From Escherichia phage Eryne: 64,000 nucleotides of DNA. Shown here piece after piece: positions 10,169 to 13,614 of the stretch. The DNA lies in sequence record PQ529420, one strand, 5' to 3'. The number at the start of each line of letters is the position of its first letter. Positions within the stretch are counted from its first letter, which is position 1. A program made the position numbers and the translations under genes. The notes beneath the pieces were generated by a model. The model was not told where the DNA came from, did not search any database, and saw only the letters and a list, made by a program, of their open reading frames with translations.

Positions 10169-10438
10169 CTAAAATGATTCGTTTGTCTCCATAATATATT
10201 GCATTTCCAAATCTTCCATATGTTTCTTAAATTGGTAAACAATTTCCGATGGGGAAATATCTATATCAAAAAGTTCTTTTGTACCAGAATAAAACCTAAT
10301 ACCATCAACAATAAGACCACCATAATAATCCCAATCACTTTCTCGTGAGAAAGGGTTAGGTTCTTCATAATAGTAATCTACTTCAACAATAATAGGTTCT
10401 TTATTATCTTGTTTATACTCAAAATCAAAAGTGTTCAT
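10169..10438 (-). CDS. hypothetical protein
   Basis: 89 aa ORF. Confidence 0.45.
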   Translation of the reverse strand: MNTFDFEYKQDNKEPIIVEVDYYYEEPNPFSRESDWDYYGGLIVDGIRFYSGTKELFDIDISPSEIVYQFKKHMEDLEMQYIMETNESF

Positions 10439-11382
10439 TATAAATCCTCGATAAGCAGTCTGCGGGTTTCATTTAAATCATCAATATTGTAGTTATCTCT
10501 TACATACTTAGCAAGAGCCAATCCTTTCTCAATACAAACATCAGGAGATTCGATTAAGTATTCTACAATATCTTTCCACTCTTTAACTGAATCAGCAAAG
10601 AAGATTAGATCTTTAAATTCTTCAGTATAATAGTTCTCTCGTGGCGAACAAACGAGTGGCAAACCTTTAGCACCAGCTTCAAGAATTTTTAAATTACTTT
10701 TGGCATTATTAAAATGATTATTTACTAATGGAGCTATGGAGATTTGATGACCATCATATGCTTCCATATAACACTCATAAGGACGAATACCTTCATAAAC
10801 ACAATCTGGTTGAATATCTTCTTTAATTTGCAACCATTGAGCACTACTTAACTCTTCGTGATCTCTACGAAATCCACATAAAGTTAAATCTTTACCAAAA
10901 TCAGGAAGAATTGCTAAATCATGTTTATGTGTTTCACTTCCCGCCCAAACCAGTGGACTTTTAGAATAACGGTCTTTCGTAAGAACAAACTGTCCTTCAT
11001 CAAAAGGTAATCCGTTAGGCACAATATGTACATTATCATTGTATTGGCTTAATTCAACCTTTAATGCCGGAGTTGTTGTAGTTACAAGATCGCTTCTTTC
11101 AAGGAACCATTTTAGGTCATCTCGGATTTGATTTTCAAATAATCCTTCAAGCATATGCCCTTCAGGAATAATTAAAGAATCATCCAGATCCATTACCAAT
11201 TTAAACCCAAGTTGTTTAAGAGCCAGGAAACCTGGCTTTCCACGTGTTGGTACTCCATTGAACACAAAAATATTATGCTTAGGATTAATGGTCAGTTTGC
11301 GTTTATATGGCAAAATGATTCTATGAAAATCACATACACTATACTTTTCATTTCCGCGTGTGTCAAGAATAATATTAGGCAT
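10438..11382 (-). CDS. glycosyltransferase, GT-B fold (paralog 1)
   Basis: 314 aa; C-terminal motif IAPLVNNHFNNAKSNLKILEAGAKGLP resembles GT1/GT4 E-x7-E region; paralog of adjacent gene. Confidence 0.55.
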   Translation of the reverse strand: MPNIILDTRGNEKYSVCDFHRIILPYKRKLTINPKHNIFVFNGVPTRGKPGFLALKQLGFKLVMDLDDSLIIPEGHMLEGLFENQIRDDLKWFLERSDLVTTTTPALKVELSQYNDNVHIVPNGLPFDEGQFVLTKDRYSKSPLVWAGSETHKHDLAILPDFGKDLTLCGFRRDHEELSSAQWLQIKEDIQPDCVYEGIRPYECYMEAYDGHQISIAPLVNNHFNNAKSNLKILEAGAKGLPLVCSPRENYYTEEFKDLIFFADSVKEWKDIVEYLIESPDVCIEKGLALAKYVRDNYNIDDLNETRRLLIEDL

Positions 11383-11393
11383 ATAACTCCTTG

Positions 11394-12407
11394 TTAAAGA
11401 CTTTCAATAACTTGACGACGCAGTTCATTGGCATCTGCAAGATTATAATTAAGACGAACGTGTTCTGCAAGCATCATACCACGATCTTCTGTGTATCTAG
11501 GGTTCCTCATTAGCTTGACAACTTCATAATGCCAAGATGCTTTAGAGTCTGCATAGATAACAGCCTTTGCATCTACCGGATTGAAGTACGGCAGCACAGG
11601 AGAACAGATAATAGGAAGACCCTTTGCACCTGCTTCCAAAATCTTCAAATTGCTTTTACAGTTGTTGAAGTCATTATCTACCAGAGGAGCAATTGCAATA
11701 CTGTGACCGTCATACACAGACATATACTCACCTAAATTTTTAATAGCTGGTTTATACTGTGCATTTGGAATTTTACGTTTTACTTTAACCCACTCCGCAG
11801 TAGTTAGATACTGACTATTATTTCCAACAGGTGCAGAAGGATACACTTCATACCCTGCAATTGTCAATAGCGTATCATCAAATGTATTAGCTACAAGAGA
11901 TAAATCAGGTTCATGGCTTGCTCCTCCCGCCCAAATAATAGGCGTGTCAGAATAACGGTCTTTTGTCAAAGTAAATTGACCTTCGTCGTAAGGTAGTGCG
12001 TTTCTAATAACGACAACATTACGATTTAAATGACGAATTTTGTAAGCTAGGTATTCTGTTGTTACAGTAACCACATCTGCTAACTTAATCATCTCTACAA
12101 TAGTCTTTGAGTGATTAGTAAATACGCCAGCCATATAATGTTCAGGATTAAGCGAATAAAAATCATCTAAATCAACAATAATCTTAACACCTTGTGCCTT
12201 CAGGCGTTTAACTTCGTCTGATCCACGAGAATACACTCTATTAAAAACTAAAACGTCTTTCTTAGGTTTAAACGTATTTCCAGCAAATGGCATTACAATA
12301 CGATGGTAATCACAACCACTGCCTAACTTATTATCACACTTAAGTACAGGAGTATTAGGATTTACCATATTTTTGAGCCTCCTCATAAGAGATAAAAGTT
12401 TTACCAT
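11394..12407 (-). CDS. glycosyltransferase, GT-B fold (paralog 2)
   Basis: 337 aa; same conserved motifs (IAPLVDNDFNNCKSNLKILEAGAKGLP); alternative start at 12368 (MVNPNTP) fits paralog alignment. Confidence 0.55.
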   Translation of the reverse strand: MVKLLSLMRRLKNMVNPNTPVLKCDNKLGSGCDYHRIVMPFAGNTFKPKKDVLVFNRVYSRGSDEVKRLKAQGVKIIVDLDDFYSLNPEHYMAGVFTNHSKTIVEMIKLADVVTVTTEYLAYKIRHLNRNVVVIRNALPYDEGQFTLTKDRYSDTPIIWAGGASHEPDLSLVANTFDDTLLTIAGYEVYPSAPVGNNSQYLTTAEWVKVKRKIPNAQYKPAIKNLGEYMSVYDGHSIAIAPLVDNDFNNCKSNLKILEAGAKGLPIICSPVLPYFNPVDAKAVIYADSKASWHYEVVKLMRNPRYTEDRGMMLAEHVRLNYNLADANELRRQVIESL

Positions 12408-13041
12408 TGCGAAGATCCTCCAGTGATTGTTTATATTGTTCCCAGTTTACACCAATCCCCTGTTCTTTCTCTTCTTTTGACAGATTCGCAAAAGGTAAAG
12501 GATTGTCTCCAAACACATCGTCAGGATGGATAAACGCCATAATTCGAATAGGACATGGTACGCCGTGAATACCTCGGTTCAAACCTGCCAGTGGAACGCG
12601 CTGAATCCACTCTGCATCTTCATATCCATAACCGTGGGTGTATGAGCGGAAATAGCCAGCTTTCTCAATAACTGCACGGGAATACATACCAAACTGGCAC
12701 ATGCCTAGCTCCCAAATAACCACTTCTCCTTCAATACCTTTTACTTTATCTTTAAAGTATTCAGGCATACCAAAGAAATCCCAACCATTTTCCTTCGCCT
12801 GTTTTACAAAATATGTTTCCCAACCTGGAACAACAGGATAACAATCATCATCAAAAATAAACCAGTAGTCATACCCTTCATCATAAAACTTTTTCATCAG
12901 TTCATTACGGGCATATGCAACACCTTTTCGTTCACGATCATACTGTACAACAAAAGTAGCATTAGGATCAGTTACAAGATAATCTTTAAGAGGACGCTTA
13001 CCTACAGTAATAACACCAACACCAATTTTTGTATTTTCCAA
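12355..13041 (-). CDS. glycosyltransferase, GT-A fold (GT2-like)
   Basis: 228 aa; DxD motif (IFDDDCYP) and GYGYEDAEW typical of GT-A enzymes. Confidence 0.55.
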   Translation of the reverse strand: MENTKIGVGVITVGKRPLKDYLVTDPNATFVVQYDRERKGVAYARNELMKKFYDEGYDYWFIFDDDCYPVVPGWETYFVKQAKENGWDFFGMPEYFKDKVKGIEGEVVIWELGMCQFGMYSRAVIEKAGYFRSYTHGYGYEDAEWIQRVPLAGLNRGIHGVPCPIRIMAFIHPDDVFGDNPLPFANLSKEEKEQGIGVNWEQYKQSLEDLRNGKTFISYEEAQKYGKS

Positions 13042-13050
13042 AATAACTCC

Positions 13051-13614
13051 TTAAATAATTTTATTCATGTCTTGACAATGTAAAAGGTGTGAAACAGCTT
13101 TTCTAGGATCATCATTACCTAAACGGTATGTGTGAAATAAATATAACCCACGTAGTAAACCTAGCCTTTTATTGTTAGCGTGCAATGCTTTAGAGAAAAT
13201 TATATCAAACTGTATTGATCTTTCCTCAAAAGGAATTTCATTCCACAGACTCTTACGAAAGAGAAGAAAGAATCCTGCTAAGATAGCATCTGTAGGTACT
13301 TCCTCTTTTGAGTTTCCCCATTCTAGATGTGCTCTTTTTGCAATCTCAATGTGGTGTAATATATTCGGATCTTCACTTCTTTCATTATTAAATAATTGAT
13401 ATGTTGATCCCAATCTGTTACAAGATGCACCAAGAACATCAAAATCAGGATTTGAACGGACAATTGATTCCAGCCAAGCAGGTTGTTCTGGAAGAAGAAA
13501 CATTGTATCAATGTCTCTTAGGCAAATCCAACTATCTTCTGGTAAGACACTTATTGTGTCATTGATACCTTTTCCAATATCTCCAGAAAGATAGGGAGTT
13601 ATGTGAAATATCAT
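13051..13614 (-). CDS. hypothetical protein (possibly glycosyltransferase-associated)
   Basis: 187 aa; adjacent to glycosyltransferase genes. Confidence 0.45.
   Translation of the reverse strand: MIFHITPYLSGDIGKGINDTISVLPEDSWICLRDIDTMFLLPEQPAWLESIVRSNPDFDVLGASCNRLGSTYQLFNNERSEDPNILHHIEIAKRAHLEWGNSKEEVPTDAILAGFFLLFRKSLWNEIPFEERSIQFDIIFSKALHANNKRLGLLRGLYLFHTYRLGNDDPRKAVSHLLHCQDMNKII

Follow-up and report, generated by a model that had tools for sequence, protein, structure and literature searches.

Four clustered glycosyltransferase genes in a phi92-like coliphage and a possible rhamnose-containing glycan on an acceptor other than DNA

Why would a strictly lytic coliphage carry four glycosyltransferase genes in the neighborhood of its replication genes, and what would their products glycosylate? 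The locus that raises this question lies in a stretch of 64,000 nucleotides from Escherichia phage Eryne (sequence record PQ529420), here called the window, whose positions are used throughout. A preliminary description had placed four glycosyltransferase-like genes at 10438-13614; all four open reading frames (ORFs) are indeed present there, on the minus strand, and each product matches a PHROG glycosyltransferase family (E = 3e-79 to 4e-149). We propose, tentatively and with slightly less than even confidence, that they form a soluble four-enzyme line that would build a rhamnose-containing oligosaccharide on an acceptor other than DNA, most probably a virion protein. The four genes are as follows.

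13051..13614, minus strand: predicted minimal GT-A glycosyltransferase of 187 amino acids, the first gene of the cluster (phrog_14179, AlphaFold, Foldseek)
12355..13041, minus strand: GT-A glycosyltransferase of 228 amino acids, with a TTG start and an R...DDD...ED motif (phrog_2456, AlphaFold, Foldseek)
11394..12407, minus strand: putative GT-B (GT4-like) glycosyltransferase, the 'core' paralogue, 337 amino acids as annotated and likely 324 (phrog_7162)
10438..11382, minus strand: second putative GT-B (GT4-like) paralogue, 314 amino acids (phrog_7162; Pfam Glyco_trans_1_2)

Sequence comparison assigns the window to Justusliebigvirus (Stephanstirmvirinae), that is, to a phi92-like coliphage. 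It aligns to PaulScherrer (Bas60) at about 35-101 kb; over its region 10100-13700 the identity is 99.8% with Escherichia phage VivaForever and 98.9% with phi92. This region is matched by 55 phage records, every one a Justusliebigvirus and at least 95% identical, and nucleotide identity across the glycosyltransferase region is 98.5-99.8% in the 25 records listed. The four ORFs are the counterparts of phi92 gp163-166 and of PaulScherrer bas60_0048-0051. RefSeq labels all four 'glycosyltransferase', and the BASEL authors named two of them 'putative disaccharide synthase' and two 'putative glycosyltransferase'. The cluster genes are already annotated as glycosyltransferases in more than 100 related genomes, and the idea of DNA glycosylation is in print. 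Compared with phi92 gp163-gp166 and the orthologues in Justusliebigvirus and Phapecoctavirus, the genes, their order and their place before the primase-helicase gene are the same and nothing material differs; no experimental test of their function was found in the searchable literature.

The 187-amino-acid product, which the preliminary description had left as a further unknown protein, is identified by its predicted structure as a GT-A glycosyltransferase. It matches phrog_14179 (E = 7e-112), its AlphaFold model has a predicted local distance difference test score (pLDDT) of 93.8, and Foldseek comparison of this model with the PDB returned GT-A enzymes exclusively, the best being RmlT of L. 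monocytogenes (1.7e-4), a TDP-rhamnose-dependent enzyme. Across 34 sequences of the family, D34-x-D36 is invariant, as are N66-R67 and H161-x-Y163-R164. The protein is thus modeled as a minimal GT-A fold with the DxD motif present, and the cluster holds four glycosyltransferases, not three. It has no Pfam family of its own, and the family comprises 1203 metagenome representatives at E <= 1e-3. Fusion is frequent in this family: 15 of 20 fused forms carry a TOD1/MUCI70 glycosyltransferase domain, and GT2, GT25 and Methyltransf_24 domains also occur as partners.

The 228-amino-acid protein had been described as a GT-A protein with DxD and GYGYED motifs, and this description holds. Its ORF opens with TTG, six nucleotides after AAGGAG, and its product matches phrog_2456 (E = 3e-79). 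The motifs FIFDDDCYP and GYGYED are both present, and several residues are invariant across 18 homologues (N46, D64-D65-D66, Y138, G139, E141 and D142), with R45 at least 90% conserved. The AlphaFold model has a pLDDT of 87.4, and all of its top Foldseek matches in the PDB are GT-A enzymes (STIV A197, WrtF, the glycosyltransferase domain of LH3, and TarP). Against viral structures in BFVD, the model matched unnamed GT-A proteins of phages and giant viruses with TM scores up to 0.73; no DNA glucosyltransferase stood among the named matches, and the BFVD comparison therefore did not identify the acceptor. We also considered glycosylation of the collagen type, since both GT-A models matched the glycosyltransferase domains of LH3 and COLGALT1. 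These matches are generic to the GT-A fold and no lysyl hydroxylase was found, so this candidate was set aside. Relatives carry a fiber with short GXY stretches.

The two remaining proteins are paralogues, as had been proposed from a shared motif. They are 41% identical across 324 amino acids (E = 5e-83), both contain the motif IAPLV.N.FNN.KSNLKILEAGAKGLP, and they match phrog_7162 at 4e-149 (337 amino acids) and 2e-145 (314 amino acids). In Pfam, the 314-amino-acid protein reaches 26.8 bits with Glyco_trans_1_2, above the cut-off of 25, and the longer protein does not pass the Glyco_trans_1_2 and Glyco_trans_1_4 models (14.7 and 18.1 bits). A profile of the GT-B family (39 sequences) weakly matched the GT4 enzymes MshA and TreT in the PDB (E = 0.009-0.02); its best match there, a designed TIM barrel, was discarded as a repeat artefact. 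Nothing rose above noise when PDB sequences were searched with the four proteins one by one or with the profiles of the two GT-A families. The true start of the 337-amino-acid ORF is probably the 14th codon, an ATG at 12368 that would give 324 amino acids, because GAGGAGG precedes this ATG, the homologues have 322-324 amino acids and the PHROG match starts at residue 20. The annotated start creates a 53-nucleotide overlap with the end of the 228-amino-acid gene, and public annotations probably use the wrong start for this protein.

The relatives indicate which of the four genes form the conserved set. The orthologue of the 337-amino-acid protein is the single GT-B of Klebsiella phage phi1_175008 (66% identity), and further orthologues occur in Burkholderia (43%) and in metagenomic phages. 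The 314-amino-acid paralogue is confined to Justusliebigvirus and Phapecoctavirus, the E. coli clade: genomes of the E. coli phages have two GT-B copies each, those of the Klebsiella relatives a single one. On this distribution, the paralogue is an apparent addition in the E. coli clade. In phage phi1_175008, the corresponding site carries a 187-type GT-A and a single GT-B, and a 228-type GT-A is encoded elsewhere in the genome. More distant relatives carry, before the primase gene, either the full four or the order 187-type, epimerase/dehydratase, 228-type and GT-B (relative L015). The conserved trio therefore consists of the 187-, 228- and 337-type genes, and these three types are found in all Stephanstirmvirinae relatives examined.

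A link to rhamnose lies outside the window. PaulScherrer, a relative 98-99% identical to the window, encodes RmlA, RmlB, RmlC and RmlD, all scoring above their NCBIfam equivalog cut-offs (rmlA 473.7 bits for a cut-off of 360.65, rmlB 443.3 for 365.1, rmlC 259.8 for 155.75 and rmlD 253.8 for 224.05), and there the rml genes adjoin those of class I ribonucleotide reductase. RmlC is 100% identical in phage Nernie, whose glycosyltransferase region is 99.7% identical to that of the window. At 60% identity or more, RmlC and the 187-amino-acid glycosyltransferase are each found in 131 phage records, and both sets are made up of Justusliebigvirus and Phapecoctavirus genomes plus relatives. Phage phi1_175008 keeps RmlC and RmlD alongside the three glycosyltransferase types, and the epimerase/dehydratase gene inside the cluster of L015 is of the nucleotide-sugar type. 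Because the rml genes and the cluster are co-distributed, dTDP-L-rhamnose is very likely a donor.

From the folds, catalytic motifs, paralogy, operon structure, co-distribution with the rml genes and gene contexts of homologues, we infer the following order of action, donors and acceptor. The four enzymes would be soluble and cytoplasmic: no membrane-spanning segment is present in any of them or in the small ORF that follows them (the highest Kyte-Doolittle mean over 19 residues is 1.21). They would act in series to make a short L-rhamnose-containing oligosaccharide, with dTDP-L-rhamnose supplied by the phage RmlABCD and the remaining sugars drawn from host UDP-sugars. A single enzyme would prime the protein with its first sugar, and the chain would then be lengthened by the others. 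Our guess for this first enzyme is the ancestral 337/324-amino-acid GT-B, which alone is basic (isoelectric point 8.2-8.9, the other three lying at 5.1-5.7). The acceptor would be one or more phage structural proteins, such as a tail fiber with an Ig-like domain, a capsid protein or a decoration protein. We favor this proposal because the four predicted glycosyltransferase folds have intact motifs, the rml genes accompany them, homologues lie near virion genes or adhesins and the phage has a fiber with a Big_2 domain, and because virion glycosylation has a precedent in mycobacteriophages and the evidence counts against DNA as acceptor.

The contexts in which homologues occur bear on the acceptor. 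A 228-type GT-A gene followed by a GT-B gene lies directly upstream of the terminase and portal genes on a 36-kb phage contig. Prophages in four Pseudomonas genomes also have this pair upstream of terminase, there preceded by a small Big_2-domain protein. In Streptomyces phage Zuko, a GT-B homologue and a UDP-glucose dehydrogenase adjoin terminase. Domains of the 187 type are encoded between terminase and portal in one locus (L012), accompanied by two Methyltransf_24 genes, a GT2 and a deacetylase. In Cellulophaga phage phi17:1 such a domain, with a Methyltransf_24 gene adjoining, separates the head-morphogenesis gene from those for prohead protease and capsid, and in L013 one stands in a large sugar-biosynthesis cluster that also encodes glycosyltransferases, epimerase and sugar aminotransferase. 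In Burkholderia dolosa and in Trinickia, the GT-B homologue comes after an inverse-autotransporter adhesin with Ig-like domains, an order that is the layout expected of a cytoplasmic adhesin-glycosylating enzyme. In Burkholderiaceae, an uncharacterized protein of 556-571 amino acids with no Pfam domain always stands between adhesin and glycosyltransferase, and this locus may represent an undescribed adhesin-glycosylation module. No recognizable base-modifying enzyme was ever found beside homologues in the contexts examined. Overall, the families appear to behave as parts of multi-step glycan builders, often in the company of virion genes or of a surface protein. As a separate observation, the GT-B family recurs beside Big_1/Big_2 proteins in bacteria, including a Pseudomonas silvicola prophage (L021, 4625-5266).

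In the window, the protein that comes to mind as acceptor is the following.

69..1955, plus strand: lateral tail fiber with a Big_2 Ig-like domain (Pfam), a speculative candidate acceptor

Its Big_2 domain spans residues 112-170 (1e-12), which is no more than suggestive of a role as acceptor.

Glycosylation of proteins by clustered or adjoining glycosyltransferases has several parallels. Mycobacteriophage-encoded glycosyltransferases modify capsids as well as tail tubes (Freeman et al. 2023, as cited in PMC10877033). The likeness to this Che8-type system consists of distant homologues of the 187-amino-acid family that lie beside Methyltransf_24 genes near virion genes; tblastn with the 314-amino-acid GT-B and the 187-amino-acid GT-A found no mycobacteriophage homologue. 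The present cluster differs from the mycobacteriophage system in its Gram-negative host and in the position of its genes outside the structural module. In chlorovirus PBCV-1, protein A064R combines two rhamnosyltransferase domains with a methyltransferase domain, and the rhamnose-containing glycans of the capsid are made in the cytoplasm. Here too, small GT-A domains are fused or clustered with glycosyltransferase and methyltransferase domains, and the fusion pattern of the 187-amino-acid family is analogous; however, the PBCV-1 system is eukaryotic-viral and N-linked, and PBCV-1 homology was not among the top Foldseek matches of the GT-A models. The heptosyltransferases Aah and TibC, and HMW1C, are soluble cytoplasmic glycosyltransferases encoded beside the autotransporter-type adhesins that they modify before export. 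Their layout is matched by the Burkholderia and Trinickia GT-B homologues, whose putative activity on adhesins is suggested by gene adjacency; unlike Aah, TibC and HMW1C, the phage proteins have no Pfam match to Glyco_transf_9 or GT41-type models.

Several points weigh against a virion-protein acceptor. The cluster genes lie in the replication operon, away from the structural genes. Only two independent bacterial contexts underlie the association with Big domains, and phages commonly carry Big_2 domains. The surroundings of one homologue (L025) consist entirely of genes for DNA metabolism (ribonucleotide reductase, RecA, MazG and resolvase); a second DNA-metabolic context (L011) also holds sugar-biosynthesis genes. 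No glycan on a virion protein of a Stephanstirmvirinae phage is reported in the searchable literature. Finally, three features of the cluster (its R...DDD...ED motif, its match to TarP and its MshA-like GT-B match) recur in the DNA-acting glycosyltransferases of Pyle et al., and DNA-hypermodification clusters occur beside terminase genes (bioRxiv 10.1101/2023.12.21.572611). In a narrower form of the proposal, the cluster would be the earliest example of virion-protein glycosylation among phages that infect Gram-negative bacteria, with a glycosyltransferase family shared with Ig-domain adhesin loci; we regard this as rather unlikely, yet as more probable than the sparse DNA modification considered below.

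The operon involves two further genes.

10169..10438, minus strand: acidic, conserved ORF of 89 amino acids (phrog_4240)
8384..10156, minus strand: primase-helicase, a context gene (ORF list; DNA primase/helicase in the annotation of relatives)

The cluster genes are tightly packed, with gaps of at most 12 nucleotides or overlaps, and the last glycosyltransferase gene runs into the 89-amino-acid ORF through a TAATG stop/start overlap of the kind that couples translation. This acidic ORF matches phrog_4240 (8e-35), and an ORF of 85-89 amino acids stands at the same position in relatives L006, L015 and L016. The primase-helicase gene starts with AGGAG-GTG 12 nucleotides further on. Because the genes are packed and lead through TAATG into the 89-amino-acid ORF and then the primase-helicase gene, the cluster shares an operon with the replication genes and stands upstream of them. 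The preliminary description was thus right that the cluster adjoins the replication genes, but had it downstream of polymerase and primase-helicase; on the minus strand it is transcriptionally upstream of both. Scans for promoters and terminators found no more than consensus-level matches within ORFs, and transcription units were not defined from them. The adjacency to replication genes is conserved synteny in the subfamily, and as such it is weak evidence about function.

Co-transcription with primase-helicase and polymerase is nevertheless one of the points in favor of DNA as acceptor, with rhamnose or other sugars placed on a modified base, genome-wide or sparsely at a sequence motif, so that host nucleases would be evaded. 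We consider this quite unlikely, although the idea has been put forward for exactly these phages: Olsen et al. (2020) proposed rhamnosylation of hydroxymethylated nucleotides (PMC7552041). The 228-amino-acid family adds to it. The 228-amino-acid protein also matches phrog_842, the beta-glucosyl-HMC alpha-glucosyltransferase of T2/T6, and 17 of the 18 family members have matches to Pfam TAGT (PF20691), the family to which the second DNA glucosyltransferase of T6 belongs (PMC13390438). These TAGT matches are sub-threshold, reaching 23.3 bits in the phage protein for a cut-off of 27.5 and covering residues 16-75 only; the E values for Glycos_transf_2 are comparable, and Glyco_transf_7C gives similarly weak matches. 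The R...DDD...ED motif is generic to many GT-A enzymes, and the residue following ED in this family is A, S, T, I or V, not the Y/F of the EDY/F motif of Pyle et al.

The preliminary description had pointed to T-even phages, in which DNA glycosyltransferases sit with replication genes. The cluster does resemble theirs in combining phage-encoded GT-B and GT-A enzymes among replication genes, and the 228-amino-acid protein shares the generic motif of TAGT-like enzymes. The analogy fails, however, in every comparison made, beginning with the enzymes themselves. None of the four proteins matches the Pfam families of T4 DNA glucosyltransferases at E <= 0.1. In profile comparison by hhalign, the GT-B family reached a probability of 3.6% against T6 a-gt, and comparison with T6 ggt (the TAGT-type second glucosyltransferase) gave 1%, the whole set against these two proteins being 3.6%, 1% and 0.7%; homology to T6 ggt or a-gt was ruled out on these values.

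A second requirement of the T-even scheme is a precursor base. The absence of a base-hydroxymethylase from the window, already noted in the preliminary description, was confirmed: neither a thymidylate synthase nor a hydroxymethylase was found in it, and no hydroxymethylase was found in the whole genome of PaulScherrer. The sole thymidylate synthase-like gene in PaulScherrer is of the ThyX type (Pfam Thy1, with TIGR02170 as the only NCBIfam match). Known dCMP and dUMP hydroxymethylases derive from the ThyA family. The idea that a hydroxymethylase is hidden under the annotation 'thymidylate synthase' was rejected because this gene is ThyX. Likewise, no TET/JBP or other 2-oxoglutarate-dependent oxygenase was found among 26 mid-sized uncharacterized PaulScherrer proteins (about 140-470 amino acids). 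A Cupin_3 match in the 200-amino-acid ORF at 14965-15567 was discarded as a dioxygenase candidate (E = 0.0036, below threshold, with no HxD...H motif seen). A C5-cytosine (Dcm-like) methyltransferase is limited to Justusliebigvirus, with 54 records at 95% identity or more and none at 60-95%, whereas the glycosyltransferase cluster and the rml genes are also present in Phapecoctavirus. Because the methyltransferase is confined to one genus and no TET was found, a pathway from C5-methyltransferase through TET to glycosyltransferase was rejected.

In these respects the cluster also departs from the methyltransferase/5mYOX(TET) clusters described by Pyle et al. (bioRxiv 10.1101/2023.12.21.572611). 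The two are alike in having several GT-A and GT-B enzymes with TarP and MshA as structural neighbors, and DNA-modifying phage glycosyltransferases build mono- to trisaccharides; here, 5mYOX/TET was not found in the 26 proteins and the C5-methyltransferase is not co-distributed. The same authors judged the roughly 65% of glycosyltransferase-containing contigs that have no nearby base-modification enzyme 'less likely' to act on DNA.

The behavior of the phage DNA points in the same direction. HincII cuts the DNA of phages ESCO8, ESCO9 and ESCO32, all of which carry the glycosyltransferase cluster, and PvuII gives a pattern with that of vB_Eco_J-01 (PMC10269720, PMC12529148). Moreover, phi92-like phages were found to be 'exceptionally susceptible' to restriction-modification systems in the BASEL study of Maffei et al. 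(PMC8594841). Because there is no homology to T-even glycosyltransferases, the synthase is ThyX, no TET was found, the methyltransferase is distributed differently, HincII cuts and PvuII gives a pattern, it is effectively excluded that a glycosylated derivative replaces one base throughout the genome. Further points against a DNA acceptor are that three of the four enzymes are acidic and that homologues are present in temperate prophages of Pseudomonas as well as next to adhesin genes of bacteria. A sparse modification would leave most restriction sites cleavable, and sparse motif-specific hypermodification had previously been overlooked in Pbunavirus phages (PMC12191111); the paper on END nucleases does not extend to Bas60-62 in its coverage. 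Even so, a sequence-specific hypermodification in which a rhamnose glycan would sit on a base whose precursor arises by neither a ThyA-type hydroxymethylase nor TET seems very improbable to us. The preliminary description had left the acceptor as either phage DNA or a virion protein: the first, in its T-even form, is poorly supported, and the second is compatible with all findings and favored by the homologue contexts.

The structural neighbors of the two GT-A enzymes suggest yet another acceptor, since TarP (which is prophage-encoded), RmlT and WrtF are all enzymes of cell-wall polymers. On the cytoplasmic face of the membrane, the phage enzymes could decorate a lipid-linked glycan, such as an intermediate of enterobacterial common antigen, lipopolysaccharide core or O-antigen. 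Such remodeling of the host envelope would alter the receptor of the phage and so limit superinfection or the trapping of progeny on debris. GT4-like GT-B enzymes commonly use lipid-linked sugars, rhamnose is a typical envelope sugar, and the name 'putative disaccharide synthase' given to the GT-B pair by the annotators of PaulScherrer fits this idea. The primary receptor of these phages is enterobacterial common antigen and the terminal receptor is the glucose of the lipopolysaccharide core (PMC8594841). We nevertheless hold envelope remodeling, and the receptor change that it would bring about, to be unlikely. Unlike the Gtr seroconversion systems (GtrA/GtrB/GtrC), the cluster has no membrane anchor or flippase of the Gtr type, no Gtr-family Pfam match and no hydrophobic segment in its four proteins, and a strictly lytic phage leaves little time for a new glycan to reach the surface. 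In other phages the homologues lie inside packaging and head modules, not in lysogeny or moron positions, and the Burkholderiaceae homologue is linked with a protein adhesin rather than with a polysaccharide locus.

A last group of possible acceptors comprises non-structural proteins of the host or the phage and small molecules. Glycosylation might then inactivate a host or defense factor, or might modify a nucleoside-like metabolite made by products of neighboring genes. The cluster does stand in an early/middle region, a few kb from genes for TerD, vWA-TerF, TelA, TerC, a macrodomain protein, a phosphoribosyltransferase and a HAD-like protein, and GT-A toxins and rhamnosyltransferases that act on host proteins exist. 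Yet four glycosyltransferases and a dedicated sugar-nucleotide pathway exceed what the mono-glycosylation of one target would need, the Ter-like genes are missing from most other homologue contexts, and there is no Pfam match to EarP or to toxin-type glycosyltransferase families, which also disposes of EarP-like arginine rhamnosylation. We regard an acceptor of this kind as highly unlikely.

What is at stake differs between these readings. The phi92-like and phAPEC8-like phages are broad-host-range therapy candidates, and all of them spend about 6-7 kb on four glycosyltransferases and a complete rhamnose pathway. A virion glycan, if real, would be the first for a coliphage and would bear on immune recognition of therapeutic phages, on their stability and on adhesion to mucus or host. 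DNA modification, if it were real, would mean new chemistry and a new anti-restriction strategy.

The surroundings of the cluster yielded further observations. Genes of the Ter type lie just upstream of it on the minus strand, from 15620-19433 on to about 27000: TerD at 15620-16216, a vWA-TerF-like gene at 16289-17083 and TelA at 18330-19433, followed beyond TelA by genes for TerC, a macrodomain protein, a phosphoribosyltransferase and a HAD-like protein, as identified from the annotation of relatives and Pfam. The order TerC, TelA, vWA and TerD also precedes the glycosyltransferase genes in the distant relative L016. A SleB-type cell-wall hydrolase (14363-14872, minus strand; Pfam Hydrolase_2, 6.5e-20) with a hydrophobic, signal-like N-terminus is encoded in the early/middle region, several genes upstream of the cluster; in relatives a separate endolysin is annotated elsewhere. 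No tRNA or Rfam element was found in the window.

On the side of the replication genes, the DNA polymerase (5308-7887, 859 amino acids) and a UvrD-type helicase (at about 32100) are without the inteins annotated in PaulScherrer, the alignment gaps falling exactly on the positions of the PaulScherrer inteins. Between the polymerase gene and one resembling that of a single-stranded DNA-binding protein lies a 197-amino-acid ORF (4577-5170, minus strand), at a position where the Klebsiella relative annotates a 'nucleotidyltransferase'. A weak match to the PolyA_pol head domain (E = 0.0018) came from one protein of the PaulScherrer batch scan and is not attributable to a specific ORF.

At about 42400-44450 (L003, 18611-20566), a protein with four CapR domains and T5orf172 precedes a NADAR (YbiA-like) protein; the first of the two is annotated as 'endonuclease' in VivaForever. 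This is the part of the window least conserved with respect to PaulScherrer (92.7% identity). Finally, four records labeled 'Campylobacter phage' with C. jejuni as host (MG065645, MG065689, MG065656 and MG065650) match the glycosyltransferase region at 95-99% nucleotide identity, and the proteins that they encode share 76-99% identity with proteins of E. coli Justusliebigvirus and Phapecoctavirus. To judge by these identities, they are probably mislabeled or contaminant coliphages.

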